From an uncultured Alphaproteobacteria bacterium (GTDB taxonomy: Bacteria; Pseudomonadota; Alphaproteobacteria; Paracaedibacterales; CAITNM01): a DNA stretch of 64,000 bases. Made by a program: the position numbers and the translations under genes. Positions 11,382-44,975 of the stretch are shown piece by piece. The notes beneath the pieces are model-generated. The model did no database searches and was not told the DNA's origin. It was given only the letters and a program-made list of their open reading frames with translations. The stretch lies in assembly GCA_903874955.1 (NCBI GenBank), contig CAIQTY010000037.1, forward strand, positions 5,397 to 69,396. The letters run 5' to 3'. Position 1 is the stretch's first letter. Every line of letters starts with the position of its first letter.

Positions 11382-12962
11382 TTAGCTTGGTCCTGCTGGT
11401 ACTAAGATTTCGTAGTTTATTGGTACATATAAATTACTTAGATCTAGATTATATAACTCTATATGTGAAGTATACTTGAATGAATCAACTGAAAATTCAT
11501 ACATTTTTAATGGTATGCCTAATTTTTCTTTCAAATGTTTTGCGTAATGGTTGTCAAAAATGCTTGATTCATAAGCAATAAAAAGGCTTTTATTCTCTAG
11601 CGGTTTTTCAGCTTGTTCTAAGGCTGCTCTCATTCCTGGAGTAGACAATTTCTCTAGGTGAGTACCTAAAATTCTGTCGAATAGGCTTTGATGCCTATAT
11701 TTGACGCATTCAAGTAAGCTTCGATCAAATGCTGCATTCGTAGCATCTGCTTCCAACCTATCAAGGATTGCCTCTTTTTGATTCATATAAGCATGAACTA
11801 AACCATCATCTTTTGCTTTTTGGGAAGGCTTTGGATTGCTTGATCCAACAGTTAAAAGTGTTAAGTATTCTTGGTTCCCATGGGCAGCTGCGCAAACATA
11901 TAAGGCATCTATTAGATTTTGCGATGGCAGAGCCGCAAGCCTAGAAAACAAATTCAGGGCCTCTTTTACAATTTTCCATTGATTTTCCCTAGCTTTCTTT
12001 GCAGTGAATGCTTCTACAACGTTGATACTTGGTTTTTTTCCAGTGTTTGCTGATAGCATCTCCTCTGCTCGAACATAATTCCCCCTGTTTAAGGTTAGAT
12101 CTAAAGCGTAGTTTTTTGCCTCAACGGATGGTTTAGGCCAGGACGCACTTGCTAGCATTCTATCCATTAAGGTGTAATTATTGAGTTTTGCAGCTTGAGT
12201 GTACAATAAGATTACACTGGTTTGATCAGGTTGGAACTTTTCTAAAATTTTCATTTTCTCTTCAGTTTCTAGAAGTGAAGTTCCTCTTTTTTTTAAATCG
12301 GTTGTAAAAGCTACGATAAAGCTCTGTGCCAACCAATTTTTCTGCTGATGGCGCATTTGTCGATTGCCTTTTAAAAAAAGCTCAGTATGGTCTAACACAA
12401 ACTGTGCAAACTCTCCAAAACCATGACTATTACAATAGTTCAACAGTCCATCAGCAAAATTAGATTGCCAATCTCTATTGTTTTTTTCTCGCGACGAAAT
12501 AAACCAAATAAATGCTCCAAGATATCCTTTCCCGATGGTGCTTTCAAAATTTTTAAAATGTTGTTCTAGGAAGCTTTTTTTTCCAAATAAAGGAGTTGGA
12601 GTTCTAAAGGGGGTATCGCCGCTTCCAAAAAAATCTTCAAAAGTTTGTTTAGATGCCAGTAAAAATAACGTTCCTTGCCAACCCACTTTGCAAAGTAGGC
12701 TATGAACTAGTTTGCGCTTTTTGAACGTTTCTTTTTGTTCAGATTCATATTGTACGGGGCGTAAACTCTTAAATTCAGCAGGAGCTATTTTTTCTTTTAA
12801 TTTTTCATTGAGTTCAACAATATTTTTTTTAATGTCAGCACTATGTAATAATTGCAGGGCTATCTGTGCTTTTTTCCAGCTTTCCAGCTCGTCTAATGAA
12901 TCTGCTGAAAAAATTGCTGTACACCCGATCCATAGTATCATTATTGTTTTTAGTAGAGTCAT
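11382..12962 (-). CDS. orphan secreted protein with ankyrin-like 33-residue periodicity
   Basis: ATG at 12962 gives MTLLKTIMILWIGCTAIFSADS. (K/L)PS motifs sit at residues 283, 316, 351 and 384 (track numbering), each followed by helix-like segments. An example is PSQNLIDALYVCAAAHGNQEYLTLL, which resembles the ANK consensus. Confidence 0.6.
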   Translation of the reverse strand: MTLLKTIMILWIGCTAIFSADSLDELESWKKAQIALQLLHSADIKKNIVELNEKLKEKIAPAEFKSLRPVQYESEQKETFKKRKLVHSLLCKVGWQGTLFLLASKQTFEDFFGSGDTPFRTPTPLFGKKSFLEQHFKNFESTIGKGYLGAFIWFISSREKNNRDWQSNFADGLLNYCNSHGFGEFAQFVLDHTELFLKGNRQMRHQQKNWLAQSFIVAFTTDLKKRGTSLLETEEKMKILEKFQPDQTSVILLYTQAAKLNNYTLMDRMLASASWPKPSVEAKNYALDLTLNRGNYVRAEEMLSANTGKKPSINVVEAFTAKKARENQWKIVKEALNLFSRLAALPSQNLIDALYVCAAAHGNQEYLTLLTVGSSNPKPSQKAKDDGLVHAYMNQKEAILDRLEADATNAAFDRSLLECVKYRHQSLFDRILGTHLEKLSTPGMRAALEQAEKPLENKSLFIAYESSIFDNHYAKHLKEKLGIPLKMYEFSVDSFKYTSHIELYNLDLSNLYVPINYEILVPAGPS

Positions 12963-13164
12963 AGCACCTCTATTCAATTCTTTTTGATAGCAATATAATA
13001 TATAGTAATAAATATTTTAGTTACAATAAGCATTTTATATTTTTTACGATTTTTAAATTCTTAATGATGCGCTCAAATATATTATTTTTAATGACACATA
13101 GCATTAACTTCTTTTTCAAAAATTGTGTGCTACATTTACTCAGGATATACAAACAAAAATTTTT

Positions 13165-18982: not shown

Positions 18983-19474
18983 TTTATGCTGCCTAAAATT
19001 TTACTTATCCTACTAGGTTCGGAATCACCATTCCAAGGCAGTTTCCTCACGGTTTGATCCAGATTGATTTGGGTAGGTGCCCAAGCAAAACTATAGAATC
19101 TATAGTCTCCCTCTGACTTGATTAAAGAGTCCAATCAAAGGAATCTAACGTGTGACCAGGCAAGCCAGAGTAAAACTCGTGTAGCTGCGAATATTTTTCA
19201 AGTTTTTTTGGAGTATATAATCTCGAACTGAGGTGGATTTAATCTACAGCAGGTAGTGTTTAATTATCTTTTTTCTGAAATTTTGTTATTTTTTTAAATA
19301 GTTTTCTGAATTTCTACGTATTTAAATGATGGTTTACCTAAATTTTCCATCTTTAACTTGGTCTTTTTTGATTTTACTTTACTATTTAAATAATTTATTA
19401 ATTTTTCTCTGGTAATATATATCTCTTTTTGGTACTTTAAATCGCAAATCAAATTATTGATATTAGGGCTAATT

Positions 19475-21547
19475 ATGATCAAATTTCGTTCATTGCTATT
19501 TTTATTGTTGTTTTCTTTGGGGGTATTATTGCAGGCTGCAGCTGTAGCTGCACCTACACCTTCAACAGGTGATTATAATTATGATGACTTGCGTCATCGG
19601 CTTGAAAACACATCGGGGCCAGATGCTTTAGATGCATTTGTTGAATTTTGTGGAAGAAGAATAATTGCTGTTCCTCAGGAATACGACTTTTCAATTGATC
19701 GTGAAAATCAATATAAATTGAGTGAACAATGCCAGATAGCATGTACGATTAGGTCCGCCAGGATTGCTTTTATCCGATTAGCCGATGATCAACTTTCTCG
19801 ATTATTAGTTGATTCTAAATATAACGAATTTCTATCAAGTGCACTTGGTTTTAGTTTTATTCACGGATGGATATTGGCACGATCAGAAGCAGTAATTACC
19901 CCCTATTACGTTGGTAAGTACTTTAGCTATGAAAAAATGTATCAGGGGTTAATTGCTCAAGTTGAATCTGGAAATATTAAAACACGTTTTAATGACTTGT
20001 TGTGTGATGGTATTGTAAGTATAAATGCTGCCAATGAGGTAAGAGAGCTCGGATACTTTTTTGACTACGTAATCCCCTTGCATTACGCGATTGAGAAGGC
20101 AAAAGAAGCACCTGTTACATCATCAGTAACGACGGCAGCGCCAACAATACAAAAATTTAATCCCGCACTTTCAATGAGGAGAATTATTCAAGATGCAACT
20201 GACTTCCGCTTGAATTGGGGTGTGAAAACTGAGCGTAATCCTTTTGTGTTTGACTCAAAAAGTGAGGTGAAGAAAAAAAAAGCGAGTTTTACTACTAGCA
20301 CAAAAAAATCGACATGGGGAAGCTATGCTAAAGCAGCTTTTGTTGTTGGTGCTATTGCTATTGCTGGTCTTCGTGCCTATACGGTCCGTGATTGCATAGG
20401 GAGAGCACCTTATTTTAACCAAGGAAATGAAACTATAGGTTTATTCGATTTTACAAGTCCTTCTGCAGCTTATTGTTTAGTGAATCCAAGTGCTTATCCG
20501 AATCAAGAATGGATGCCAATAATTCAAAGTTCAGCTAATAGCACTAACGCCTCTTCCCAGTTTTCTGGTAATGGAGCTGTTGGTGGCGTTGGATCTGTGG
20601 ACGATACGGATAACGAGGAAGGTGAAGAAGGTGATAAGACCTCAGTTGATGAAGAAGAATATGAACATGGATCTTCAAACTCAACAACTTTCCAAGGTTC
20701 TACAGAACTAATGTTACATTCAGCCAATGAGAAAGCACTAGTACTTTTTAACGGTACAGCAATAGCTCACAAAGATGACGAATTTTCTGTGATTTTGCGA
20801 CCTAAAGATGAGTTTATTTCACTTTTTCAAATCTTGGGATGTTTTAGTCGCAAATATCAATCAGACTTATATCCAAAACATTTTAGAAATGATGTGTTCG
20901 ATCATATATTCCAAGAAGGATATAACGAAACATATCAACAAAATTTTATAGATAGTTTTGACGATAACCAAAGAAAAGTATTGATTTCTGCTGGTCAACA
21001 GTTAAATTGTGGGCAAATTCGTGGAATATATCTCAAAAATATAAAATATGGAACACTTTTAGGTCCACAAAGGCAAACTTACGAACGGTTAAAGCTAGTA
21101 TTATCTCAAAAACAGAAAGAAAAAATTTCTTCACTAAGACTACGAGAATATGATGAACTGGATGATGATGAAAAATTATTTTTATTGTTAACAGGGGTAA
21201 TAGACGGATCTAAATCATCAGTAGTACAAAGAATCTTTACTCGCAATGGATGGGCACCAATGCAGCAAATAAATATACTCGAATTATCCAGCAAAGGACA
21301 ATTTAACGATCAACTTTTAGGTTATTTATTAAATTTACTTGATGGAGGAGCAATAGAAATTGGTCAGAAATACGATCCTACAACTCGAAAGAAAATCCAT
21401 TGTATAAAAGCTCAGGTTTCTCCAACGGAATATAATTTAATATACATAGACCCTTTGACTAAACAACCCAAGACCGATCGCTATAATAATAGGGGCTTTA
21501 TTCCACCGGAAAATAATTATTTTCTCACCATAAATACAACAAACTAG
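19475..21547 (+). CDS. orphan membrane/secreted protein (~690 aa)
   Basis: ATG at 19475 gives MIKFRSLLFLLLFSLGVLLQAAAVAAP. There is an internal TM segment (AAFVVGAIAIAGLRAY) and an acidic patch DDTDNEEGEEGDKTSVDEEEYEHG. I recognise no family. Confidence 0.6.
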   Translation: MIKFRSLLFLLLFSLGVLLQAAAVAAPTPSTGDYNYDDLRHRLENTSGPDALDAFVEFCGRRIIAVPQEYDFSIDRENQYKLSEQCQIACTIRSARIAFIRLADDQLSRLLVDSKYNEFLSSALGFSFIHGWILARSEAVITPYYVGKYFSYEKMYQGLIAQVESGNIKTRFNDLLCDGIVSINAANEVRELGYFFDYVIPLHYAIEKAKEAPVTSSVTTAAPTIQKFNPALSMRRIIQDATDFRLNWGVKTERNPFVFDSKSEVKKKKASFTTSTKKSTWGSYAKAAFVVGAIAIAGLRAYTVRDCIGRAPYFNQGNETIGLFDFTSPSAAYCLVNPSAYPNQEWMPIIQSSANSTNASSQFSGNGAVGGVGSVDDTDNEEGEEGDKTSVDEEEYEHGSSNSTTFQGSTELMLHSANEKALVLFNGTAIAHKDDEFSVILRPKDEFISLFQILGCFSRKYQSDLYPKHFRNDVFDHIFQEGYNETYQQNFIDSFDDNQRKVLISAGQQLNCGQIRGIYLKNIKYGTLLGPQRQTYERLKLVLSQKQKEKISSLRLREYDELDDDEKLFLLLTGVIDGSKSSVVQRIFTRNGWAPMQQINILELSSKGQFNDQLLGYLLNLLDGGAIEIGQKYDPTTRKKIHCIKAQVSPTEYNLIYIDPLTKQPKTDRYNNRGFIPPENNYFLTINTTN

Positions 21548-22874: not shown

Positions 22875-24041
22875 TTATTTTTTAAGCATTTTAATCATGT
22901 CAGGAATGATGTTTTTGTTAGTTTTTAAGTATTCAATTGTCGATTGCTCTAAGGCATTTAAGTCTACCCCCAAAAAAGCTTTTGGATTTGCAATAACTGG
23001 TGCAAAACGTATGAAGTTGTTCCCCATAGCCGCAGATAGCGCTTGGCTAATATCAGCCTCATAAGGATCAATATCCAGATTCAATAAATGCGTTACTATA
23101 TCAAGATACGTAAAAAATTCCTTGCTAGCGGAAACACAAAAATTTGATCCTTTTGCAATACCATTTCCAAGGGATAGCAGTCTAAATTCTTTCGCGTCTG
23201 GGTATAATTCTCTTGCTTTAATGAGGGCATTAAAGGCTGGGTTAATATCTAACGTTGCTCCGTCGATACAGAGGTATTCAGCCCCTCCACTATTTAAAGG
23301 TGAAAGAAGTCTAGGAGGAAATACAAATGGAAACGCTGTACTTGATAAAACGACATCGGTTGTTTTATAGGTATTTTGGGTGTCTTTGCTTGAAATTACT
23401 CTTGTTTTCAAATTTTTTATATCGAATACACAAGCAGCTCTTGGCATAGTGGTATGATCGTAGGTCGAATTTCCAAAGTACGAGTTGTATAGTTCTTCTG
23501 GTCCTTTTGGATCAAAAAGGGAAGGAAGTAGTCGAAATTTTGAAAAAATCTTGCCGCTTTCCTTTTTTTTAATCTCTAGGTATTCACTAGGTGTAAAAAT
23601 AGGCTTCGAAGAATCTGAGAGGCTTGGTTGAGTTAAAACGGCTATATCAAGGCAGCCTGCTGATGCGCCGACGGCGAGATCAAATATTTCATGGATAGGT
23701 TTGCCCATTCTGTCTTCAAGCTGACTTAAGGCAACCAATTCACAAATACCACCAGATGTTCCCCCATCAAATGACAAGACATTCACTATATCTTTATTTC
23801 CGCAGCCTGCTTGCATATACATACCTCTGGGCATATGTAGAGCAGATGATCCAGAAATTGCAGAAGCAGCAAAGAATATAGTTGTTAAAACATTTGGTCT
23901 TTTAGCAACGCGAGTATATTGAGTGCTTTCTTGTTCAATCGTTGTTTTATTTGCTGCAATCAAATTAGGTGTTTGAAAGGCGGTTACAAAAAATGCAAGC
24001 GATAGTGTGGTGATGATTTTTGATATTTTAAAATTAAACAT
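22875..24041 (-). CDS. patatin-like phospholipase with signal peptide
   Basis: Oxyanion-hole region SFDGGTSGG, nucleophile elbow GASAG and catalytic Asp motif IDGATLDINP. The N-terminus is MFNFKISKIITTLSLAFFVTAF. Confidence 0.8.
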   Translation of the reverse strand: MFNFKISKIITTLSLAFFVTAFQTPNLIAANKTTIEQESTQYTRVAKRPNVLTTIFFAASAISGSSALHMPRGMYMQAGCGNKDIVNVLSFDGGTSGGICELVALSQLEDRMGKPIHEIFDLAVGASAGCLDIAVLTQPSLSDSSKPIFTPSEYLEIKKKESGKIFSKFRLLPSLFDPKGPEELYNSYFGNSTYDHTTMPRAACVFDIKNLKTRVISSKDTQNTYKTTDVVLSSTAFPFVFPPRLLSPLNSGGAEYLCIDGATLDINPAFNALIKARELYPDAKEFRLLSLGNGIAKGSNFCVSASKEFFTYLDIVTHLLNLDIDPYEADISQALSAAMGNNFIRFAPVIANPKAFLGVDLNALEQSTIEYLKTNKNIIPDMIKMLKK

Positions 24042-25322: not shown

Positions 25323-26214
25323 GGGGTGTTACCATCGCTTTTCTGGCAGCTTGTAAGCGCATAAAATCGTCCCCAGCATGGTAAGATGAGCGTGTGAGCG
25401 GTGATGCTGCAATAAGCAAAAAGCCTTTTGCGCGGCCACGGCTTGCATATTCTTCAAATTGCTGAGGGGTAATAAAATCCATAACGTCATGGTGTTTAGG
25501 GGTTGGCTGTAAATATTGACCGATGGTCATAAAGTCGACATTCGCCGAACGTAAATCATCCATGACTTGGAAAATTTCGTGTTTTTCCTCTCCGAGTCCA
25601 ACCATTACACCTGATTTGGTAAAGATGGTTTCGTCGAGTTTTTTAACCGTATCGAGTAAACGCAAGGAATTAAAATAGCGAGCTCCTGGGCGCACTGTTG
25701 CATAGAGACGGGGGACGGTTTCAAGATTGTGATTAAACACATCTGGTTTAGCTCTAACGACAGTTTCTATGGCACCTTCTTTGCGCAAAAAATCTGGCGT
25801 TAGCACTTCAATTGTTGTACTAGGCGATTTTAGGCGAATTTCTTGAATTACTTGCGCAAAATGTTCTGCGCCTCCGTCTTCTAAATCATCTCTATCAACA
25901 GACGTAATAACCACATGAGAGAGATTCATTTTCTTAACGGCAAGGCCAACCCGTTCTGGTTCGTGGGGGTCAAGTAAATCTGGAAGACCGGTTTTAACAT
26001 TGCAAAATCTGCAAGATCTTGTGCAGACATCTCCTAATATCATGAAGGTAGCGTGACGTTTTGCCCAACATTCTCCAATATTTGGACAGGCTGCCTCTTC
26101 GCAAACTGTATGAAGTTTATGCTCGTTTACAAGAGTTTTTGTTTCAAAATATTCTTTTGAAATAGGTGCCTTGACTTTAATCCAATCAGGTTTTTTACGC
26201 TGGGCGGATTCCAC
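25306..26214 (-). CDS. lipA: lipoyl synthase
   Basis: [12 protein letters not shown] auxiliary cluster and [10 protein letters not shown] radical-SAM CxxxCxxC motif. The whole length is LipA-like. Confidence 0.95.
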
Positions 26215-26222
26215 GTTGATCC

Positions 26223-26723
26223 TTATTTTTCGTTTGTTCTAATATTTCTGGCTTCTCGTAAAATAATGTTTTCTAATTCTCTAGAGGCTTTATTATCAAT
26301 GCCAACATCATACCAGCTGCCATTTTTTTGAGCCTGCTTGTATACGCTAACCTCTAACGCATTAGAGCGCAACTCCTTATCCTTGATTCGTACTTGGATT
26401 TTAAGTCTGTCTTTAGCAGCGGCGGATTGATACCAATCGGTAACCAAAATACCCCCAGGTCCATCTGAGGAAACTAAAGGGGCAAACTTGAGCGTGTTCA
26501 AACTAGCCTGCCATAAATAGCGATTTACAACTTGCCCACCTTGGTCTCGGGTGCGGCCCGTAACTTTTTCTGAACCTAGCACAAGTCCTTCTGGTCCAGC
26601 TAAAGAACCAAACCCAAGTTTTACTTTATCTTCTCTAGACTTTGGGGCTTCTGCTGTTTGCTGGGTGTTCGAGCAAGAAGCTAAAAGTACGCATAAAAAT
26701 ATATTTAAAATTTTAAAAGACAT
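26223..26723 (-). CDS. lipoprotein, DUF3576-like
   Basis: Lipobox LLASC followed by [31 protein letters not shown]...RLKIQVRI, the pattern I associate with DUF3576. Confidence 0.55.
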
Positions 26724-26996
26724 TTGAAATTAAAATCTAAAATGGTAATGGAATATAGCTTATTTTTAGAAATTTTTCGAGTGATTCTTTCGTGAAAAAA
26801 TTAAAATTAAGAGTGAAATATTAATCAGTTTTTAATTTTATTTATTCAGAATGAAAAGATATCAAAGGTGAAATAAATCAAAATGAAATTTACAAACCCA
26901 ATTTTTATTATAATAAAAGGTTTGTCTGCTATGTGACGATTTCCATAGCTAAGTTCTATTTTGCCTAACTTCACCGAAAAAATATCGGAGTAAGTT

Positions 26997-28808
26997 ATGC
27001 TGAAAAAATTTTCCCTCACCTTCTTCATTTGCTTTTTAGTACAAAAGAGTGTTCTGACCCCAAGTGATATTTATCCTTCCAATCTACCAGCAATGTTTTG
27101 GATGATGAGGGACCATTTTTATGAACGCCTTTCAGCGCCGTCAGCAACAAGAGCTTCTTTTGCATCTACTTTATGCGAGTTTGTGAGATTATGTGACTTT
27201 ATTTCACCGAATCCTGTTGGACGAGATAGATTGAGAAGTGACCTTAATGACTATTCCGTTATAAGAAAAATGACTGAAACTGCTAAAGCCGATAATCTAA
27301 GCGTACTCGATGAGCTAGAGAAAAAAGCTAAGGAAGCATCTTTGGATTTTTATTCTAGCCGTCCCATACCAGGATATGTTTTTACCAAAGCAGACGGTGC
27401 GCCTAATGAAGCGGCAGAGATATACCCAAAGGCAATATCAAGTTTTTTTTGGGTAGCTAGAGAACAGTTTTATTGCTATTTAACTGATGAAGAGTCAACA
27501 AAAGAGGATATACGAAAGTCATTTTGTGAATTGATATTAATCAGTGACCATGTTGCACCTGAAAAATTTATAAAGACTTGCCTACGTGTTGACCTTGAAA
27601 AATTTTCCTTTGAAAAGAAAATTAAAAGAAAACGAAAAACGGAGATATTGTCTATTCTGTCAGAATTGGAGCAGATCAATGTCTACGAAATAAGGCCAAT
27701 TCCAGGATATAACCTCATAAAAAGTCCTGATCAGGTTGCTCAAGAGCAGGCGGTTATTCTAAAAGTATTTGAATATACCTTCAAGCAACAATCTTTAATT
27801 ACTGATGCAAAGTCTTACATGGGGAATGCCTTTAAAGGATTACTTATGCCCGAAGAAATTGCAGAAATTCTTAAAGAATATATCCGAGGTCAAGATTCCG
27901 CGATGAATGCTTTAGGTATTATTGGCCATAAAATCATGGCCCAAATACGTCTCAAGCAAACTCATTCTGATTGGGAATTCCGTCCTCCCCATGCATTTTT
28001 AATTGGGAAATCGGGTTCCGGCAAAACTCAGTCAGTTATTGAATTATGTAAAATTATTGGTATTCCGTGGATTAGGATTAATGCCCCTGAGGTGGTGGGG
28101 GAGGGGTTCAAAGGTCCAACCTTGTCATATCATTACGAACAATTGAAGCAGGCGCAAAAGATTCCTCCCTATGCGATCATAATTTTAGACGAAGCAGGAA
28201 AAATGGGTAGGACTGGATCTGGTGATGATGCTCCAAAATATGGTTCTAGTATCATGAGAACACTGTTGGCTCATATGGATGGTACAACGGTTAAACTACC
28301 TTCTTCAGATAGTAGCGAGCAAAGTCTTTCTACAAAATGTTTTACTTATCTTGCAACTGACGCGTGCGCAACTTTACCTGACTCTGTTGAAGTAACACCA
28401 GATGTACTTGGTCAATATATAGACATGCCTCTAGAGCTCATTAACCGGTTTAGCCAGGGAATTATCAGACTTGCTCCCCATACGGTATCCAGTTTATTTG
28501 ATATTTTAAAAAATAATTCAAAAGGCGCTTATGCCCATGAACGTAATTTCTTTAAGAAATTATACAACATTGATCTGGTTATTGAAGATGAAGGGCTTAA
28601 GGCTATAGCAGAAAGGTCTATTTTAGATTCAACCGGTGTTAGAAAACTTGAAGAAATACTGGGGCACGTTATATCGCCCCTTTACAGTTTACCTATAGGG
28701 TTAATTAAGGAGGAAAATGGTACAAAAAAAATAACCTTAGATAAAAAGTTTGTTCAAGAACGTTTGCCTGCTGTGGTTCAAAAAGAACATAACCCAATGT
28801 ATAACTAA
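26997..28808 (+). CDS. ClpX-like AAA+ ATPase with hydrophobic N-terminus and tandemly duplicated unknown N-terminal module
   Basis: Residues 283-560 are ClpX-like: LLMPEEIAEILKEYIRGQD, Walker A GKSGSGKT (337-344), GFKG at the pore-loop position, Walker B IIILDE (394-399) and STGVRKLEEIL. Residues 25-131 and 142-242 are repeats sharing IYP..FW..R..FY, CE, LR.DL, LS.L.ELE and RPIPGY. Confidence 0.7.
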   Translation: MLKKFSLTFFICFLVQKSVLTPSDIYPSNLPAMFWMMRDHFYERLSAPSATRASFASTLCEFVRLCDFISPNPVGRDRLRSDLNDYSVIRKMTETAKADNLSVLDELEKKAKEASLDFYSSRPIPGYVFTKADGAPNEAAEIYPKAISSFFWVAREQFYCYLTDEESTKEDIRKSFCELILISDHVAPEKFIKTCLRVDLEKFSFEKKIKRKRKTEILSILSELEQINVYEIRPIPGYNLIKSPDQVAQEQAVILKVFEYTFKQQSLITDAKSYMGNAFKGLLMPEEIAEILKEYIRGQDSAMNALGIIGHKIMAQIRLKQTHSDWEFRPPHAFLIGKSGSGKTQSVIELCKIIGIPWIRINAPEVVGEGFKGPTLSYHYEQLKQAQKIPPYAIIILDEAGKMGRTGSGDDAPKYGSSIMRTLLAHMDGTTVKLPSSDSSEQSLSTKCFTYLATDACATLPDSVEVTPDVLGQYIDMPLELINRFSQGIIRLAPHTVSSLFDILKNNSKGAYAHERNFFKKLYNIDLVIEDEGLKAIAERSILDSTGVRKLEEILGHVISPLYSLPIGLIKEENGTKKITLDKKFVQERLPAVVQKEHNPMYN

Positions 28809-29569
28809 TGTTCCAGAAACTGTTCATGAAGAATTCTCTCTTCTAAGTGATGGTTGGGATCAAATAAAAGAGTGTAAGGTTGTGATGTATCTAAAAAAAT
28901 ATTAACCGTGTTAACTTTGTTAATTAATCTCTGGTCTGCCGTTAGTTTTACGGGGCGCTGATCTGGGTTTAAAACTTCTAATTCGATTTTGGTAGAGCTT
29001 GGAATTAAGGCGCCTTTCCACCTTCTTGGCCTAAAAGGGCATATAGGCGTAATTGCAATAAGGCTTGATTCTAAAGGTACAATAGGTCCGCCAGCAGATA
29101 AATTATACGCAGTACTTCCTGCTGGCGTTGCAATAATTAAACCATCTCCGATTAAGGAGCTTAGCCGCATTTTATCATTTAATTTAATCGCTATTTTCGA
29201 TGTTTGTGCTGAGCTTCTAAGCAAAGAAATTTCGTTAAAGGCCTTTATGGAAAAAGATTTTCCATAGAGATCTTTAACTTCAGCTTTTAACGCATAAAGG
29301 GTCGTTGGTTTTGCTTTCGTAAGTTTCTCTGGAAGCTTTTCGAGTTCTTCAGCGTCATTCAATAAAAATCCTATTGTGCCTGCATTAACGCCATAAACGG
29401 GCACGTTATTGCTTTCTAAATTGTGTAGGGTATGAAGCATAAAGCCATCTCCGCCAAAAGCTACGATGATTTCAGCTTCTTGCCTAGACGTGCAATTTAA
29501 GAAGCCTTCAGCCAGCTTGGCAAGTTTTTTTGCTTTAGGATTAATTGAAGCCAGGATTGCTACTTTCAT
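28805..29569 (-). CDS. nadK: NAD+ kinase
   Basis: GGDGFMLHT motif plus the NE..L and TPAGSTAYNLSAGGPI motifs. Its stop overlaps the ClpX-like gene stop (convergent). Confidence 0.85.
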   Translation of the reverse strand: MKVAILASINPKAKKLAKLAEGFLNCTSRQEAEIIVAFGGDGFMLHTLHNLESNNVPVYGVNAGTIGFLLNDAEELEKLPEKLTKAKPTTLYALKAEVKDLYGKSFSIKAFNEISLLRSSAQTSKIAIKLNDKMRLSSLIGDGLIIATPAGSTAYNLSAGGPIVPLESSLIAITPICPFRPRRWKGALIPSSTKIELEVLNPDQRPVKLTADQRLINKVNTVNIFLDTSQPYTLLFDPNHHLEERILHEQFLEH

Positions 29570-29571
29570 GT

Positions 29572-30657
29572 CTATAGCTTGCCCACATAAATGCCCATTG
29601 CCTTTGCGGTTTTGATCAGCATTCCATGGGGATCTACGGCGTTGTAGGTATCTATGGTTGAATCTATTGGTACCGATTCAACTTGATTGTTACGCCATAC
29701 AACCATTTCTCCAAAAGTTTTTGCAGCAACTAAGTCTACTGCTTTAACGCCAAAGGCGGTTGCGATAATGCGATCTTGAGCATTCGGCTGTCCGCCCCGT
29801 TGGACATGCCCTAGAACAGTAAAGCGTGTATCAGCCTTAATGCGTTCTTCAAGTTCAGTGCATAAGTATTGAGAAATACCACCATAGCGGGGTCTATCAT
29901 TGTATGATGTTCCTCTTAGCACTGCATTTCCGCTTTCGGTTTTTACAGCCTCTGATACAATAATCAGGGAAAAATTTCGTCCCGAACTCGTAATTTTTTG
30001 AATATGATCGCATATTGCACCAAGTTCGTAGGGAATTTCTGGAATGAGAATAACATCGGCGCCGCCTGCTATTCCTGCAGATAGTGCAATATGGCCGGCA
30101 TCACGTCCCATAACTTCTAGGATCATCACCCGTTGATGGCTGGCTGCAGTTGGTTGTAAGCGGTCAAGTGCTTCAGTTGCAACGCTTACTGCTGTATTGT
30201 AGCCAATAGAAAAATCAGTTTGGGCAAGGTCATTGTCAATAGTCTTAGGGATACAAACCAGGTTGATATCGCCTTTTTTTGCAAGACTGCTATTAATGCG
30301 CATGCTCCCGTCGCCGCCAATGGCGATGATAGCGTCTAGTTTTAATTGATGGTAACCAGATATAGCATCACCAGAACGGTCGATTTTTTGGCCGTTTTCT
30401 GATGGAAAATAGAATGGATTTTCTTTTGTCGTGCTGCCTAAAATTGTTCCTGCCGAACGGAGCATGGTTTGGTCGCAATTAGAAAGATCAAGCTTAATAT
30501 ATTCCATTGGTCTTCTAATTAAACCGCTTGTTCCTTTTAAGATCCCAAAAACTTCCCAGCCATAATGTTGAGTGGCATGGATCGTAATCGCCCTTATGGC
30601 GGCATTTAAGCCTGAACAATCCCCGCCACTGGTTAACACACCAATTCTTTTAGTCAT
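29572..30657 (-). CDS. pfkA: 6-phosphofructokinase
   Basis: IGVLTSGGDCSGLNAAIRA, IGGDGS, PKTIDNDL, MGRDAGHIA and GHVQRGG motifs. Confidence 0.85.
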   Translation of the reverse strand: MTKRIGVLTSGGDCSGLNAAIRAITIHATQHYGWEVFGILKGTSGLIRRPMEYIKLDLSNCDQTMLRSAGTILGSTTKENPFYFPSENGQKIDRSGDAISGYHQLKLDAIIAIGGDGSMRINSSLAKKGDINLVCIPKTIDNDLAQTDFSIGYNTAVSVATEALDRLQPTAASHQRVMILEVMGRDAGHIALSAGIAGGADVILIPEIPYELGAICDHIQKITSSGRNFSLIIVSEAVKTESGNAVLRGTSYNDRPRYGGISQYLCTELEERIKADTRFTVLGHVQRGGQPNAQDRIIATAFGVKAVDLVAAKTFGEMVVWRNNQVESVPIDSTIDTYNAVDPHGMLIKTAKAMGIYVGKL

Positions 30658-31618: not shown

Positions 31619-32098
31619 ATGTTTTGGTGTAATAAAAAATCTAATTTTTTATCAAACTTTTTAATAAAAAATTATTTTAAATTCTTTTTTTTGTGGATAT
31701 TTATCTCTGTATCATTTTTTGCCTCTGAAAAAATAGATCAACAAGATGATTCTTGTGAACTCATTAATCCAAGGTATATCAATAAATTGTTGGATGTATG
31801 GAATCATGGAAATGATCGGCCTACCATTTGCATAATAATGAGACATTGCGCGGAGTATGCTGATCCTTTATTTTCTAACAAGCTGTCGTTCGCATTGTGG
31901 GAGAAAGGGGATGACGAAGATAAAAAATTCGCTTTGGGTATTATTCGATCAAGAGCCAAAAAAAAACCTGTCGATGCAGATGTTAATAATGCAATATCCT
32001 TTTTATTGAAAAATGGGAATCAGGAAGATAAAGATTATTTCCAGCCTCTTGTTCAATCGTTAGAGAGAGATCTTCGTTCGCTAGATTTGAATTTTTAA
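31619..32098 (+). CDS. orphan small membrane-anchored protein (159 aa)
   Basis: AT-rich ORF with a hydrophobic N-terminal segment FFFLWIFISVSFFA. I recognise no family. Confidence 0.45.
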   Translation: MFWCNKKSNFLSNFLIKNYFKFFFLWIFISVSFFASEKIDQQDDSCELINPRYINKLLDVWNHGNDRPTICIIMRHCAEYADPLFSNKLSFALWEKGDDEDKKFALGIIRSRAKKKPVDADVNNAISFLLKNGNQEDKDYFQPLVQSLERDLRSLDLNF

Positions 32099-36445: not shown

Positions 36446-37786
36446 TTAATGGTACTGATAAAAAGGTTTTAAGCCATCTGCATATCCTGAGTCGATCATG
36501 GTAAAACCTAATAGATTAGCTATTTCCTTGTTTTCAAATTTTTGTGCACTTAGCGCTCGTTGATCAAAACTGAAAACTGATCCATGGCTACTAAAGCTTA
36601 CCATGTCCTGATTTTTACGCAGGTTTAGCTTCTGTTTGATTGTTTGCCAAACACCTGAAAAACTTATACTTTTTAGCGAAGTGAATCTTTTTCTGAAAAG
36701 TTCCAAAGGATCCAAAGGATCCATATCGGCTGATTTAAGTGCTTTCACCTGTTCATCTTCTAGTTCTAAAATAGATGTTAGTGCTTTTTCGCTAATACTT
36801 GCTGCGTAAACATTGCGTAAATTATGGCAAAAACAATATGCTAGCATTTGCTCTTCACCAGGAAGATCCTGCATTTTAGTGACCAATTCTAAATTTTTGG
36901 CATCTTGATAAAAACCAAAGGTTTTAAAAAACACATCAACAACTGCTGCAGCTTGTTGTTTTAGAGCATTATCTTCTTTAAACAGCTGAGCAACTCGGTA
37001 TTCAAGGAAATGTTCAGGGTTAATAGCTTTCCAAGGGTTATCCGATGCTTGCATCGCCTTATTAAACTGTAAAATTTCCAATGATTCTTGATCTGTTGCT
37101 CCATCAGCTATAAGCGTGTTGTCTTTTTTCACTCCCAGTGCCATAAGCATTAATTTGTATAATCCATAGTTATAAAATACTCTGTTATCATCTAACATTT
37201 GGTGTGTTTTAAATATCATAATATGCCCAAAAATTTTTACTTTTTGATCTTTAGAATCAGTAGTTGATGGCAGGCGAACTATATTTGCGTCAAGATGATT
37301 GTCTTTTCTTGATAATAAGTGAGGAAAAAAACTCGGCGCAGCAAGCTGATTTTGAGGATCTAACCTGGCTATGTAATCCTTACCATCTTCAATAGTGATA
37401 CTGCCTTTTAAAACTCTATTGATAAAACTTTCAAAAGGACTTTCGTGCCTATCTCTTTCAGAGCGAAAAATTTCATACCACTTATAAAAATGTTCCGCTG
37501 TTTCTAAAAACCATTCATAGCGGCTTTTGCAAAGGCCTAGAGGTTTGAATTCTTTATCAAGTATTTCTCCATTATTATTATTTCTAATATTTTGAAGTTT
37601 TTTATAATTATCCCAGCAGGATAGGAAACAAACAGCTCCCACTTGCTGAGGGACCAAGTAAATATGGGGTTTTTGATCTTGCCTATCTATTTTTGCTTCT
37701 TCAGAACTTGAATTGGCTACGGAGAAAAACGCTAGGTTAATACTAAAAAATATTAAGAAATTTTTAATTTTTAAATTTTTAATCAT
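36446..37786 (-). CDS. orphan secreted protein, 446 aa
   Basis: Signal-peptide-like MIKNLKIKNFLIFFSINLAFFSVANSS. AT-rich. I recognise no family. Confidence 0.6.
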   Translation of the reverse strand: MIKNLKIKNFLIFFSINLAFFSVANSSSEEAKIDRQDQKPHIYLVPQQVGAVCFLSCWDNYKKLQNIRNNNNGEILDKEFKPLGLCKSRYEWFLETAEHFYKWYEIFRSERDRHESPFESFINRVLKGSITIEDGKDYIARLDPQNQLAAPSFFPHLLSRKDNHLDANIVRLPSTTDSKDQKVKIFGHIMIFKTHQMLDDNRVFYNYGLYKLMLMALGVKKDNTLIADGATDQESLEILQFNKAMQASDNPWKAINPEHFLEYRVAQLFKEDNALKQQAAAVVDVFFKTFGFYQDAKNLELVTKMQDLPGEEQMLAYCFCHNLRNVYAASISEKALTSILELEDEQVKALKSADMDPLDPLELFRKRFTSLKSISFSGVWQTIKQKLNLRKNQDMVSFSSHGSVFSFDQRALSAQKFENKEIANLLGFTMIDSGYADGLKPFYQYH

Positions 37787-38853: not shown

Positions 38854-40584
38854 TTATTTAAGTCGTATATTTCTAATACTAACTGCAATCCCGATAAGCA
38901 CAAAAAGTATTCCAAACCAAAAAATATTAATATAAGGCTTCAAAATTAGTTCTATTTTCCATTTGTTTTGCTCCACAAAACAGGTTCCGTGAATATCGTC
39001 TAAATAGTGTTGAATCCACGCAGGCTGATGTTTCGTTAGATGGCTGATATGAAAATGCTGGCGTTCAGGAATTAGCTCTTTTCCACTCAGGTTAAATTTT
39101 AAAATTTCTTTAGTCATTTGTTTGGTTTCAAGAGTGTTCGTTGATTGGTACCTAATAGGTTGAGACGCAAAAGTTGGAGGTAATTTTGAGATATCATATT
39201 CTTGTTTAACAGTGAATATTTCACTATGACTTGCGCCTAAAATGCAAAGGCCAATACCCAGGTGACTGGCCACAAAACCTTTTGAGAATAAGTGTTTTAA
39301 AACGTTGCTTGTGCTAATGATAAGCCAAAAACTTATTAGCGCTGAGCAAGCAGCTAACAGATGAAAATAAGGTTGTGCCCAGGTGCACCAGACACAAACT
39401 CCTAAAAAAGCACAGATAAAATTCCATAGATGAATTTTTTGAAATGTCATCTGCGGAGCAAGTACACAAAAACTCAAGGCTATCAGCAAGAATGGATTAA
39501 TGTATTGATGAAAGAAATTTTCATCTATTGCGAGCTCAATACCAAAGAAAATTTTAAAAAAAACAGGAAAAATAATGAGACTGACCAAAATTCCTAGCAT
39601 CACAAGAAATCCATACGGAATAAGATCTCGTGCTAAAAATGAATAAGATGTAACTGATCTATTTTTGTATAAAACTAAAATCGATATTAAGCTAACGGCT
39701 AGTGTGCAAAGTCCCAGCCAAATCCCATTATTCAGGTCGAAACCAAAACTATGAACCGAGACTAAAACACCAGATCGCACAAGGGTAAGGCCAAGCATGA
39801 CCATAGGAAAAGAGATCAGCAAGCAGTTCCTAAAAATTTTTTCATCAGTTTTTTTTGCATGAACAGCTGCAGCGATTGCTAGCCATGGGAATAAGGAAAC
39901 GGTTTCAACAGGATCCCAAAACCAGAATCCTCCCCAACCAAGTTCTCCGTAAGCCCAGCGAGCCCCTAGGACTAGCCCTAATGTTATAAAAAAAAAACAA
40001 ATGCGCGTGTACTGTTGAATTTTGGAGTGGATAGGATTTACGCATGCCATTACCCAAAGTGCAAAACATAAAGTTTGTCCTGCGTATAATATAGGGGGGT
40101 GAATTGCTAAATACGGATTCTGTAGGGCAGGATTTAGATCTTGTCCCGCTGCAGCCTTTATTGCCAAAATTACAAAGGGATTTGCTTGAAAGTAAAGGTA
40201 TCCTCCTAGTGCTAATAGTACAAAAGCTGATAAGCGGATTGAATGTAAATCTTTCAGTAATAGTGCTGCCCATGCAGTTAAAAACATATAGAATAAAAGC
40301 ATTGATCCTTCATGATTTCCCCAAATTCCTGCAATTTTGTATAAAAGAGGGGTGCTTTCATGAGAATTCAACCATACATTACTAATAGTTAAATTATTTG
40401 TAAGGTAGAAAAACAATAAACAAAAAACACTGAAAATACTTATAAAAAAAGGTGTTCGAATTGATATACTATGCTGGTTTGTAAAAATTTTTTTTATAAG
40501 GAGTAATGCTAGTAATGCGAAGATTATATCGATTGAAAAAATTAATAAATATAAAGGATTAACCAATAACCTCAAATCCATCAA
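38854..40584 (-). CDS. ccmF: cytochrome c-type biogenesis heme lyase subunit CcmF
   Basis: WGNHEGSMLL, LAIHPPILYAG and the WWD-type motif ELGWGGFWFWDPVE, with many TM segments. Confidence 0.85.
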   Translation of the reverse strand: MMDLRLLVNPLYLLIFSIDIIFALLALLLIKKIFTNQHSISIRTPFFISIFSVFCLLFFYLTNNLTISNVWLNSHESTPLLYKIAGIWGNHEGSMLLFYMFLTAWAALLLKDLHSIRLSAFVLLALGGYLYFQANPFVILAIKAAAGQDLNPALQNPYLAIHPPILYAGQTLCFALWVMACVNPIHSKIQQYTRICFFFITLGLVLGARWAYGELGWGGFWFWDPVETVSLFPWLAIAAAVHAKKTDEKIFRNCLLISFPMVMLGLTLVRSGVLVSVHSFGFDLNNGIWLGLCTLAVSLISILVLYKNRSVTSYSFLARDLIPYGFLVMLGILVSLIIFPVFFKIFFGIELAIDENFFHQYINPFLLIALSFCVLAPQMTFQKIHLWNFICAFLGVCVWCTWAQPYFHLLAACSALISFWLIISTSNVLKHLFSKGFVASHLGIGLCILGASHSEIFTVKQEYDISKLPPTFASQPIRYQSTNTLETKQMTKEILKFNLSGKELIPERQHFHISHLTKHQPAWIQHYLDDIHGTCFVEQNKWKIELILKPYINIFWFGILFVLIGIAVSIRNIRLK

Positions 40585-41363
40585 ATGAATTCTTTAAGAA
40601 TTGATATTAGTACTTCAACCATAATCAGAATAATGATAACCCATTCAAGGAAAGATGAATGGGCGTGTTTTAATTCATTGCTTAGAATTTCGTACAATTC
40701 ATGAATGACGTTGAGTTTGCCATTTAGAATATTAAGTCGCACTTGGATATCAAGAAACTCAACGGCTTGTTGGTAAAATGGTTCATAGCGTGGACGTTTC
40801 CAGAAAAATTCAGGCGTATCAAGAGCATAAGAATCAAGATTTATTGAGTTTTTTTGGGAAAACAGCTTACCTATGTGTTGTGAGATTTTTTTCCTAGAAA
40901 GGGTTATTTTTCCTTTCTCAGCTAGCTCTGCTGGCAAGTGCCTCGTATTCTGAATTGTTTTATCAATTTCGTGTTCAAAAACTGATAGTTTTGCAGATTG
41001 TGATAACCCATAGGAAAGAGAAACCTTAAGCAGTAAGTCTTCAGATTGTAAAATTATCCGATCTTCTTCTTCGTCGATAAGTGTTTCTGGTCCATATTCA
41101 TAAAAAAAAGTGTCTTCTTGAACTTGCGCGAGCGCAGATTTTAGGTAAGGAGATAGTTTAACAAGAAATTCTTTTTCCTCAGAGGCTGTGTAGCCCCAAA
41201 ATACAACTGCTCCGTAAGCAAAAACACACAGAGTGTGTCCTTGTTCGATCGAAATGATAACGAGTTCGTCGAAAAGTTGCGCATTTACAGATACGGTTTT
41301 ATAGGCATTAAAAACCGCCCCTATGTCATAAGTAAGACCAGTACAATATGATGCGCAGCGCAT
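40581..41363 (-). CDS. RMD1/DUF155-family protein
   Basis: LCVFAYGAVVFWGYTASEE resembles the DUF155 core (F.F.YG..VFW). There is a single C-terminal TM. The stop overlaps the ccmF start by 4 nt. Confidence 0.55.
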   Translation of the reverse strand: MRCASYCTGLTYDIGAVFNAYKTVSVNAQLFDELVIISIEQGHTLCVFAYGAVVFWGYTASEEKEFLVKLSPYLKSALAQVQEDTFFYEYGPETLIDEEEDRIILQSEDLLLKVSLSYGLSQSAKLSVFEHEIDKTIQNTRHLPAELAEKGKITLSRKKISQHIGKLFSQKNSINLDSYALDTPEFFWKRPRYEPFYQQAVEFLDIQVRLNILNGKLNVIHELYEILSNELKHAHSSFLEWVIIILIMVEVLISILKEFI

Positions 41364-43224: not shown

Positions 43225-43881
43225 ATGAAAGTTTTTTTCTATATATTGTTTGGGTTTTTTTTTAGTTTTGCACCTGCCTATGCAGCATATGGTGCTTATG
43301 ATGATGATCCAAGCACAATGGCTGATGATGGAAGCGATCCGAGTGCAGATCCTTATGCAGATCCGAATGCAGGTAATGATGGAAGTGATCCGAGTGCAGA
43401 TCCTTATGCAGATCCGAATGCAGGTGATGATGGAAGCGATCCGAGTGCAGATCCTTATGCAGATCCGAATGCAGGTAATGATGGAAGCGATCAGAATGCA
43501 GGTAATGATGGAAGCGATCAGAATGCAGGTAATGATGGAAGCGATCAGAATGCAGGCGATGATGGAAGCGATCCGAGTGCAGATCCGATGCAGGCACCGG
43601 CAGCTAATGCAAGAGCTGCAGCGCCTGGTGGTCCTTTGACTAAAAAAATCAAGAAACCAAAGCCTAAGACGTCAAAGATGCGAAACAAGAGAGGGGTAAA
43701 GCAAAAGAAGCCAAAAGGTAAAATGCCTAGATTTTTTGGCAAAAAAAACAAGAAATCAAAGGGAAAACCAAAACCTAAAATGCAGCAAAAAAAGCGTTCA
43801 AAACAAAAAACGCCAAAGAAAAATCGTGCAAAATTAAAGAAGCCAAACAAGAAAGCCAAAAGTCTAAAATGCCGCAATTGA
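43225..43881 (+). CDS. secreted repeat protein: acidic DGSDPSADPYADPNAG repeats plus Lys/Pro-rich basic tail
   Basis: Signal peptide MKVFFYILFGFFFSFAPAYA, 17-aa x3 and 9-aa x3 repeats, and a tail KKIKKPKPKTSKMRNKRGVKQKKPKGK... Confidence 0.65.
   Translation: MKVFFYILFGFFFSFAPAYAAYGAYDDDPSTMADDGSDPSADPYADPNAGNDGSDPSADPYADPNAGDDGSDPSADPYADPNAGNDGSDQNAGNDGSDQNAGNDGSDQNAGDDGSDPSADPMQAPAANARAAAPGGPLTKKIKKPKPKTSKMRNKRGVKQKKPKGKMPRFFGKKNKKSKGKPKPKMQQKKRSKQKTPKKNRAKLKKPNKKAKSLKCRN
43327..43587. repeat. in-frame tandem repeats: 51 bp x3 (43327-43479), 27 bp x3 (43480-43560), partial unit to 43587
   Basis: Directly visible near-identical units gatggaagcgatccgagtgcagatccttatgcagatccgaatgcaggtaat and gatggaagcgatcagaatgcaggtaat. 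Confidence 0.9.
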
Positions 43882-44084: not shown

Positions 44085-44975
44085 TCATTTAATCACGTTG
44101 TTTTTTTTAGCTTTCTTTCCCTTTTTCTTTTTTTTTCCTTTTTTAGCTTTCTTAGCCTGTTTTCTTTTTTTATTTTTTGAATCTTTTTTACCGTTCTTTG
44201 CTGCAGCTTCTGCTTTTTTGGCTGCTGCCTCAACCTTTTTTTCTTCTTTTTCAAGTTTATTTTCTTTACCTGCTAAGCTACGCTCATTCTTTTGAAGTTT
44301 TTTCACTTCTTTTTTTAGATTTTCTGCATCTTCTGGGGCATCTTCCTTAGTTTTTTCTATTATACTTTTTGCTGCAACTTCTTCTTTTTTAGCTTTTGAA
44401 ACCTCTTTTTTTGCTGTAGATGCAAGGTTTTTCATTTTTTTTACTTCTTTTTTTAACTTGCTCGCCAATTTTTTCGCGGCTTTCGGGTCTTTCACTTTGT
44501 TTGAAGCGTTTTCAAGAGTTTTTGCATTTTTGAGTTCTATATCAACTTTCTTTATCGTCGAGCCAATTTTACTCTCTTCTTTGACAACTTTTTTTATTTC
44601 TTTGTTTGCTTTTTTAGCTGCGGTTTTGGCTGCTTTTTGTTTTGCAAGATCCTCTTCTTCAGTTCCATCACTTGCCTGGCCATCTTGATCGGCGTCACCA
44701 TCGTCTGCCTGGTCATTTTGATTACCGTTATCATTCCCACCTGTATCTTCGTTGTCTCCTTGGTCTAGTGAGTCAGCATTGTTTCCATCTCCATCATTAT
44801 TGTCATCACTGCCTATTTGATTGTCTGCTTCATCGTCCATTGCAGAATCATCCTCAGTAAAGCTTTGCTGATTCATGTCGTCATCTAAGTCACTAAAATC
44901 ACCAGCCTTCAAGTGTGCTAAATTACCAATATTTAAACAAAAAATACTTAATAAAAAAAACTGAATAATTTTCAT
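44085..44975 (-). CDS. secreted protein: acidic D/N/G/Q-rich half plus K/E/A coiled-coil and poly-Lys tail
   Basis: Signal peptide MKIIQFFLLSIFCLNIGNLAHL, an acidic ~90 aa region, then KAAKTAAKKANKEIKK... ending KKRKQAKKAKKGKKKKKGKKAKK. Confidence 0.65.
   Translation of the reverse strand: MKIIQFFLLSIFCLNIGNLAHLKAGDFSDLDDDMNQQSFTEDDSAMDDEADNQIGSDDNNDGDGNNADSLDQGDNEDTGGNDNGNQNDQADDGDADQDGQASDGTEEEDLAKQKAAKTAAKKANKEIKKVVKEESKIGSTIKKVDIELKNAKTLENASNKVKDPKAAKKLASKLKKEVKKMKNLASTAKKEVSKAKKEEVAAKSIIEKTKEDAPEDAENLKKEVKKLQKNERSLAGKENKLEKEEKKVEAAAKKAEAAAKNGKKDSKNKKRKQAKKAKKGKKKKKGKKAKKNNVIK

Follow-up and report, generated by a model that had tools for sequence, protein, structure and literature searches.

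Bacterial AAA+ unfoldases are regarded as cytoplasmic machines, the cell envelope being taken to lack ATP. The N-terminal domain Clp_N of ClpA/B/C (PF02861) is a tandem four-helix duplication that precedes the unfoldase ring, and the torsins are AAA+ proteins of the endoplasmic reticulum lumen. AAA+ machines have also been described in the mitochondrial intermembrane space, in the form of CLPB/SKD3 (PMC9934407), and in the Plasmodium vacuole, in the form of HSP101 of PTEX (PMC7355975). HslU binds and activates HslV through its C-terminal tail, with F441 as the key aromatic residue and a tyrosine as its equivalent in trypanosome HslU2 (PMC4106860). Here we analyze a gene from an uncultured alphaproteobacterium of the order Paracaedibacterales, located at 26997..28808 (+) of a 64-kb stretch of contig CAIQTY010000037.1, hereafter the window, where a complete coding sequence specifies a protein of 603 amino acids (aa) followed by a stop codon. 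The best explanation of our results is that this protein is the first representative of a small family of AAA+ ring ATPases of the ClpX/HslU type, which is confined to a single lineage of cytoplasmic endosymbionts of protists. Its architecture, in which a signal-like start and a duplicated module of no recognized type precede an AAA+ part without zinc finger or IGF loop, had been outlined in a first-pass annotation made from the sequence, and is borne out by alignments and database searches.

Among 5.8 billion proteins the family comprises only 12 clusters at 90% identity, and their identity to the query ranges from 57 to 73%, or 100% for the cluster to which it belongs. The protein carries the automatic IMG name "ATP-dependent protease Clp ATPase subunit", and the genome matches are metagenome-assembled genomes of Candidatus Finniella. 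As judged from these sequence matches, the family is limited to Candidatus Finniella-like Paracaedibacteraceae, which agrees with the earlier suggestion that homologs might be restricted to intracellular alphaproteobacteria. Finniella species inhabit the cytoplasm of cercozoans and ciliates (PMC11909080).

The AAA+ part was delimited with profiles and by alignment with E. coli ClpX and HslU, Propionivibrio ClpX and a clostridial HslU, and all of its elements lie on the forward strand. The large (alpha/beta) subdomain spans aa 283-493 (27843..28475) and contains the Walker A motif GKSGSGKT (aa 337-344, 28005..28028), the pore-1 loop GFKG (aa 370-373, 28104..28115), which aligns with GYVG of ClpX and HslU, the Walker B motif IIILDE (aa 394-399, 28176..28193) and the arginine finger R484 (28446..28448) in ELINRF, which aligns with EFIGRL of ClpX and whose ClpX counterpart we take to be R307. 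The small (helical lid) subdomain (aa 494-566, 28476..28694), identified through alignments and a weak match to ClpB_D2-small, contains the sensor-2 residue R549 (28641-28643) in STGVRKL, opposite TGARGL. The motifs listed in the first-pass annotation (GKSGSGKT, GFKG, ILDE and STGVRKL) thus all find their partners in E. coli ClpX and HslU. K343, D398/E399, R484 and R549 align with the corresponding ClpX/HslU residues and are invariant in all 12 family members, and GFKG is likewise invariant, retaining the aromatic residue of GYVG and replacing its valine with lysine, an aromatic-basic pair that also occurs in the D1 pore loops of ClpA and ClpB. Conservation peaks in the large subdomain, whose mean column majority of 0.90 compares with 0.72 for the N-terminal head, and the Pfam AAA profile (PF00004) matches over aa 334-445 with 43.8 bits, against a gathering cut-off of 21.2 (E 4.4e-11). 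By its motifs and their conservation, the AAA+ module is complete for catalysis; far from being a relic, it is a working ATPase kept under strong constraint.

The first-pass annotation had called the protein ClpX-like, a label that holds as far as the ClpX/HslU type is concerned and does not extend to ClpX in particular. The NCBIfam profiles of ClpX and HslU match with E-values of 6e-19 and 1.5e-12, respectively, sequence matches in the PDB are led by ClpX (E 2e-13) and followed by HslU, and Foldseek ranks them in the same order when queried with the full AlphaFold2 (AF2) model, the AAA+ part of which is poorly predicted. The equivalog cut-offs of both families are missed, with 68.2 bits versus 359 for PRK05342 and 51.1 versus 370.75 for TIGR00382 in the case of ClpX, and 47.2 versus 362.45 for TIGR00390 in the case of HslU. 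Over 289 ungapped core columns the family is 24-26% identical to ClpX and 22-26% identical to HslU, against 40-42% identity between ClpX and HslU. In its features the family is also a mosaic of the two: VTPDVLGQYIDMPLELINRF follows ClpX VEPEDLIKFGLIPEFIGRL and is five residues longer than in HslU, and the last helix follows HslU (FVQERLPAVV versus YVQERLSSIV), in an alignment that reaches the final residue. Its near-equal distance to both groups, together with these mosaic features, argues for a third, very divergent branch of the ClpX/HslU group and not for a ClpX. Word-index searches with the full-length protein, the family profile and the AAA+ part returned no intermediates between the family (at least 57% identity) and ordinary ClpX or HslU, although such searches may miss remote relatives and the exhaustive profile search described below covered the head only.

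The accessory elements of the two reference families are all missing. The C4 zinc finger of ClpX (CSFCGK...CDEC) aligns to nothing, and no zinc-finger family figures among the Pfam matches. The RKH loop GGRKHPQQEF of ClpX aligns with DSSE--Q, which contains no basic residues, and the pre-sensor-1 hairpin is short. The I-domain that E. coli and clostridial HslU insert after the pore-1 loop and ahead of Walker B has no counterpart, its place being a gap of ~130 residues in the alignment. The counterpart of the IGF-loop site, aa 458-472 (ATLPDSVEVTPDVLG, 28368..28412, +), contains no IGF-like tripeptide and shows a gap of ~30 residues relative to ClpX just after DACATL; the first-pass annotation was right about the absence of this loop, but the stretch quoted in its support, LPSSDSSEQSLSTKCFTYLATDACATLPDSVEV, corresponds mostly to the RKH/pre-sensor-1 hairpin and strand beta4. 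HslU also lacks an IGF loop, so its absence is not by itself a loss from ClpX. With ClpX the family shares the order of Walker A, pore-1 loop, Walker B, pre-sensor-1 hairpin, arginine finger and sensor-2, as well as the lack of an I-domain, and it differs from ClpX in having no zinc finger, RKH loop, IGF loop or adjacent clpP, in carrying GFKG instead of GYVG, and in possessing an orphan double head, preceded by a signal-like start, and a C-terminal tail with an aromatic residue. With HslU it shares the absence of IGF loop and zinc finger, and it differs from it in lacking an I-domain and an adjacent hslV and in having a signal-like start and an N-terminal extension of 260 aa. A role as a ClpV/TssH replacement for a reduced type VI secretion system (T6SS) was rejected, the match being a generic one of 21 bits and ClpV being cytoplasmic, and the Propionivibrio "relatives" returned by a genome scan proved to be ordinary clpX genes in tig-clpP-clpX-lon operons.

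The head of the protein consists of two copies of a predicted four-helix module, delimited by BLASTP, alignment and structural models: repeat 1 (aa 24-133, 27066..27395, +) runs from DIYP to RPIPGY and repeat 2 (aa 138-244, 27408..27728, +) from EIYP to RPIPGY. The tandem repeats of ~100 aa proposed earlier are confirmed by BLASTP, which aligns aa 22-133 with aa 137-248 at 32% identity over 110 aa (E 1e-23), and the motif then quoted fits an alignment of 15 copies in which Y, FW, R, F, C, D, LR, L..L..LE and R(PIPGY) do not vary. The unit is ~105 aa long and the two copies have diverged; at the DNA level only the PIPGY codons, 333 nt apart, are still alike. Modelled alone with ten orthologs, the head reaches a mean predicted local distance difference test (pLDDT) score of 88 and a predicted template modelling (pTM) score of 0.84, and is predicted to form twice four helices, each set followed by an extended RPIPGY segment. 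A helix of ~35 residues then leads into the AAA+ part; this long linker (aa 245-282, 27729..27842, +) appears in both models as a single helix over residues 244-279.

Sequence and fold searches with this head led to no known domain. Pfam at E<=10 yields only Imm58 (E 0.14) and a PDB profile search yields at best the coiled coil of an SH3-kinase-binding protein (E 0.36), both of which are noise, and an exhaustive search of 1.84 billion representative proteins with hidden Markov models (HMMs) recovered the family, two fragments and nothing else. The fragments, P0013 (191 aa) and P0014 (91 aa), are metagenomic and match repeat 1 perfectly before running into unrelated sequence; by this pattern they are frameshifted or chimeric pieces of family members, not independent single-module proteins. 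Fold novelty was assessed with Foldseek against the PDB and the viral models of BFVD, where the best E-values for the head were 0.41 and 0.25, respectively, with TM-scores below 0.3 and no significant match. The Erv/QSOX sulfhydryl-oxidase helix bundles that recur among these matches were rejected, since their scores are at noise level and the head has no CxxC. The layout of two four-helix units ahead of an unfoldase ring recalls that of Clp_N, but the head has no Pfam match to Clp_N even at E<=10, no N-domain of ClpA, ClpB or ClpC is found among the 50 listed Foldseek matches in the PDB, none of which is significant, and its unit is longer (~105 versus ~75 aa) and ends in the conserved RPIPGY. 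In sequence as in predicted structure, the head is therefore an orphan domain that no described adaptor domain matches, as the first reading had surmised.

Ahead of the head lies a signal-peptide-like segment (aa 1-23, 26997..27065, +), identified by rule-based inspection. The criteria for a Sec signal were a basic n-region, an h-region of 7-15 residues, a polar c-region and small residues at -1 and -3; the segment conforms to this layout with MLKK, FSLTFFICFLV and QKSVLTPS as n-, h- and c-regions, a predicted signal peptidase I (SPase I) site between TPS and D, and the DIYP of repeat 1 immediately after it. Translation of this segment is hard to doubt. A GGAG Shine-Dalgarno sequence (26987-26990) lies 6 nt ahead of the ATG, an in-frame TAA (26991-26993) stands between them, and the first alternative in-frame ATG, GTG or TTG does not occur before codon 33, so that the start is fixed and the hydrophobic N-terminus MLKKFSLTFFICFLVQKSVLTPS is necessarily translated, its first 23 codons being unskippable. 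The n/h/c layout recurs in 10 of 10 full-length orthologs, which start with MI[HR][RK], continue with a hydrophobic stretch of the FFLIILITVV type and pass through N(Q)..T.L.A to a predicted cleavage before TDIYP. This count includes orthologs with shortened public gene calls: those of at least three (P0003, P0004 and P0005) start 11-12 codons late and lose most of the signal-like peptide, and in these three the complete MIH[RK]... start lies in frame further upstream (L006 7968-8000, L011 2698-2733 and L012 2968-3000). The public call of P0008 has an equally short start. In sequence the segment is among the less conserved parts of the protein (mean column majority 0.64); drifting in sequence and yet keeping its layout, it behaves as signal peptides typically do.

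The topology that this segment would impose can be read from its flanks. Basic residues precede the hydrophobic run and the first 20 residues of the mature protein are net negative, a charge distribution that predicts an N-in/C-out orientation even for an uncleaved segment, and since no second hydrophobic segment occurs elsewhere in the 603-aa protein, the whole of it should lie on one side of the membrane. The membrane anchor put forward as an alternative in the first-pass annotation would not keep the ATPase in the cytoplasm, since this pattern predicts an external ATPase with or without cleavage. A bitopic arrangement, in which the membrane separates an external head from an internal ATPase, was discarded for want of a hydrophobic segment between the two parts, a lipoprotein processed by signal peptidase II for want of a lipobox L-[AS]-[GA]-C with a conserved cysteine, and a substrate of twin-arginine translocation for want of RR in the n-region. 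In a simple scan of the 56 ORFs (open reading frames) of the window, such starts were found on lipoproteins (DUF3576, MlaA) and on ORFs of a secreted type with no assigned function, and were absent from NadK, PFK, LipA and similar housekeeping proteins. The AF2 pLDDT of aa 1-23 is 32-35. From these features we infer that the N-terminus is a Sec-type export signal.

The opposite end of the protein carries a conserved element that the first-pass annotation had missed. In the model and alignments, the AAA+ module is followed by a C-terminal extension (aa 567-600, 28695..28796, +) with a predicted strand pair, an HslU-like last helix, KKFVQERLPAVV, and a flexible linker rich in proline and acidic residues, after which the chain ends in M-Y-N (28797..28805, +). 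All 12 members of the family alignment, and L001 as well, end in [M/L]-[Y/F]-x, the penultimate residue being aromatic, with PMYN, FGMYT, FGMYV, RNMFI, RNMFL, KNMYL, RNLYL and RNMYL as observed versions and RDLYI in L001. Tyrosine is penultimate in most members and phenylalanine in two (MFI and MFL), the last residue is N, T, V, I or L, and the residues ahead of the ending come in three different versions across the family. AF2 pLDDT falls below 50 for residues 597-603. The proteasomal ATPases with HbYX tails (PAN, Rpt2/3/5, Mpa and archaeal Cdc48) share with the family a flexible tail of the form hydrophobic-Tyr(/Phe)-x and, as we propose for it, a hexameric unfoldase ring and an N-terminal substrate-selecting region joined via a long helix; they carry coiled-coil/OB or Cdc48-type (double-psi-barrel) heads and belong to the classical AAA clade, whereas the family is of the ClpX/HslU type and its binding to a 20S particle is hypothetical. 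The HbYX motif of proteasome activators is defined as a hydrophobic residue, a tyrosine and any last residue (PMC11475706), and the family tail falls into this register, with phenylalanine for tyrosine in two members, a substitution that some activators tolerate (PMC8907193). Endings of the HbYX type occur by chance in 0.72% of bacterial proteins (PMC11475706); here the ending is kept family-wide as its neighbours drift, so that retention, and not a single occurrence, is the signal. HslU also has an aromatic residue within the last three positions of a flexible tail, and MYN and YIL align to the end, but in the two HslU sequences compared the aromatic stands third from the end ([F/Y]-I-L) with leucine as terminal residue, whereas in the family it is penultimate and the last residue varies. 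If any element of the protein takes over docking from the IGF loop, the conserved [M/L]-[Y/F]-x tail is the likeliest one.

The reading that we favour, and to which we give about an even chance, is that of an exported, ClpP-independent unfoldase fuelled by host ATP, with localization, partner and substrate all deduced; its weight is split roughly evenly between a protein that stays in the periplasm and one that reaches the host cytosol. The precursor would be exported via Sec, its very hydrophobic h-region suggesting co-translational export dependent on the signal recognition particle, and the signal would probably be cleaved after the small residue ahead of (T)DIYP. The mature protein would then assemble into a hexamer outside the bacterial cytoplasm and draw on host ATP, either in the periplasm of a naked bacterium in the host cytoplasm or in the host cytosol, the latter version requiring that the outer membrane be crossed as well. 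The double four-helix head would pick the client, the F371 pore loops would thread and unfold it, and the C-terminal tails would dock the ring on a partner ring or pocket in place of IGF loops.

Two aspects of bacterial physiology bear on this proposal: Holosporales keep Sec, and several of them import host ATP by Tlc translocases (PMC9992710), from which it follows that ATP must cross their periplasm. The first-pass objection that an unfoldase would find no fuel in the periplasm consequently fails for bacteria living free in the host cytoplasm (PMC9992710), and CLPB/SKD3 (PMC9934407) and HSP101 (PMC7355975) speak against it too. Together with the torsins, these two proteins resemble the proposed system in carrying a targeting signal, in working outside the cytosol of the cell that makes them and in receiving ATP from elsewhere. 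They differ from it in being eukaryotic and of the ClpB/Hsp104 or torsin type; none of them appears among the PDB sequence matches at E<=1, and only the AAA+ fold is common to all.

A number of points weigh against export. The signal was recognized by rule-based inspection, and some cytoplasmic proteins are known to carry signal-like N-termini. We know of no exported bacterial AAA+ unfoldase, which makes for a low prior. AF2 models the AAA+ part with low confidence. The route across the outer membrane is hypothetical, and Holosporales are reported to possess no more than incomplete type IV pili and a T6SS in reduced form (PMC9992710). Finally, the HslU-like last helix and the aromatic tail may speak for HslV, in the cytoplasm, as the partner.

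This last point can be developed into an alternative that we consider unlikely, namely that the protein is a cytoplasmic or inner-leaflet-associated HslU paralogue whose N-terminus is no export signal, whose tails dock on the bacterium's own HslV and whose head replaces the I-domain as substrate selector. In the cytoplasm, ATP as well as a partner peptidase would be within reach; the similarity to HslU extends through the C-terminal helix and tail to the last residues, HslU uses such an aromatic tail to bind and activate HslV (PMC4106860), and both proteins lack an IGF loop. The register of the tail differs, however, the aromatic being penultimate and not third from the end; the HslU profile scores 47 bits against a cut-off of 362; hslV stands beside the gene in none of six loci; and the N-terminus, by its layout and flanking charges, is predicted to take the entire protein across the membrane.

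Within the export reading, it is quite improbable that the signal remains uncleaved as an anchor, holding the ring on the periplasmic side of the inner membrane for the extraction or remodelling of envelope or imported proteins; the functional analogue would be the mitochondrial i-AAA protease, which differs in having a protease domain. In most orthologs 16 uncharged residues separate the basic n-region from the first lysine, a borderline length for a transmembrane helix; the conserved module follows the hydrophobic segment directly with no linker, and leucine at -3 is suboptimal for SPase I. The strongly hydrophobic core, on the other hand, is just 10-11 residues long, and every ortholog has a polar c-region and a small residue at -1, the usual pattern of a cleaved signal.

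Also within export, the tail raises the idea of a secreted effector that caps the host 20S proteasome, its HbYX-like tails opening the alpha-ring gate and its head feeding in host proteins without ubiquitin. No such particle other than the host 20S is expected in the vicinity, for to our knowledge alphaproteobacteria have no 20S proteasomes of their own; the HbYX register occurs on a flexible proline-rich linker in all orthologs, and the IGF loop is missing. The bacterium lives free in the cytoplasm of a eukaryotic host (PMC11909080), and the family ending PPFGMYT fits the preferences of the human 20S, which tolerates phenylalanine in the penultimate position, favours threonine as last residue and tolerates glycine or proline at P4 (PMC8907193). 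This version is nonetheless a long shot, given that the human 20S, when probed with monovalent peptides, needs tyrosine at P3 and not methionine or leucine (PMC8907193), that HbYX-type ends arise by chance at the frequency given above, that the known HbYX ATPases are all of the classical AAA clade, and that passage through the outer membrane is hypothetical.

Other genes in the window touch on the question of release. An ORF of 676 aa at 48201-50231 (+), lipoprotein-like in its start (MRYSIYTISSFLLLSSCG), combines tetratricopeptide repeats (TPR) with a secretin domain (PF00263, E 4.7e-23) and scores ~56 bits with the GspD/PilQ profiles, far under their cut-offs. Upstream of it lie ftsE (45865-46602), ftsX (46602-47486) and a DUF218 gene (47471-48043), and no other pilus or type II secretion genes are found nearby. 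It is an orphan outer-membrane channel and could matter for the release of Sec-exported proteins. Holospora, for its part, is reported to release periplasmic proteins into its host. A patatin-like phospholipase (22875-24041, -; PF01734, E 1e-13) with a signal-like N-terminus, an enzyme of a eukaryote-targeting type, is encoded 3 kb upstream of the ATPase gene, and a signal-bearing PTP-like phytase/dual-specificity phosphatase (59965-60828, +; PF14566, E 2.3e-18), with further matches to DSP-PTPase models of polymorphic toxins, is a candidate for secretion and action on the host. With a secretin and these two signal-bearing enzymes in the window, a path to the host is conceivable. Seven further ORFs of 218-753 aa have signal-like hydrophobic N-termini and no Pfam match at E<=0.001, a high density of exported-looking proteins for 64 kb; they lie at 3450-5711 (-), 9996-10967 (-), 11382-12977 (-), 19457-21547 (+), 36446-37786 (-), 43225-43881 (+) and 44085-44975 (-). 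A protein of the DUF155 (RMND1/Sif2) family, best known from mitochondria, is encoded at 40581-41363 (-; E 4.8e-51) beside ccmF and a SPOR-domain protein.

The genomic setting of the ATPase gene is that of a resident chromosomal locus. The gene is monocistronic and stands alone, as first described, between an AT-rich divergent intergenic region of 273 bp (26724..26996, +), which holds the Shine-Dalgarno sequence and in-frame TAA and is shared with the divergent DUF3576 lipoprotein gene, and a convergent nadK, whose stop codon overlaps its own by 4 nt (28805-28808). A scan of 26200-29700 for promoters and terminators gave a site count not above that of shuffled sequence. Gene order in the window is patatin-like lipase, GNAT, SRPBCC, lipA and DUF3576 ahead of the ATPase gene, and nadK, pfk, mlaA and cca after it. 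In six of six syntenic loci examined, lipA and DUF3576 precede the gene, and nadK (except in L011), pfk and mlaA follow it; surroundings this constant indicate a stable chromosomal gene of the clade, and strict synteny over the six loci together with ordinary GC content led us to reject recent horizontal transfer or a mobile element. Neither clpP, hslV, clpX nor hslU is present in the window or in four syntenic loci, where tblastn with E. coli ClpP and with E. coli HslV returned no matches. In L011 (4516-5259), a call of 122 aa after a gap of ~375 bp occupies the slot of the 254-aa nadK and may reflect decay of nadK or an assembly problem. Between mlaA and cca, the window has an ORF of 159 aa (31619-32098, +) with a hydrophobic segment and no Pfam match; this slot varies, being occupied by an unrelated 403-aa gene of no assigned function on the other strand in L006 and empty in L007.

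What we describe is a new architecture on a known kind of machine, with a truly orphan recognition domain and an unusual, deduced localization. It adds a third, deeply divergent branch beside ClpX and HslU, with features of both, and a confidently predicted recognition domain without detectable relatives. Should the signal be a false lead, the protein would still stand out as an HslU-like paralogue of unusual build, in which a new substrate selector has replaced the I-domain. Should it be genuine, a conserved and intact ClpX/HslU-type ring with a Sec-type signal, found only in bacteria living naked in eukaryotic cytoplasm, would challenge the view that such machines are confined to the bacterial cytoplasm. 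The exported hexamer stands only a slim chance of being a symbiont-encoded, ubiquitin-independent cap that plugs its HbYX-like tails into the host 20S, and if the tail truly engages the host proteasome, it would represent a new symbiont route to the reprogramming of host protein turnover. In its periplasmic version, the protein may be the first periplasmic AAA+ unfoldase, working in a periplasm bathed in host ATP much as the mitochondrial intermembrane space is, and if exported, it would offer a living parallel to how that compartment gained its AAA+ machines.

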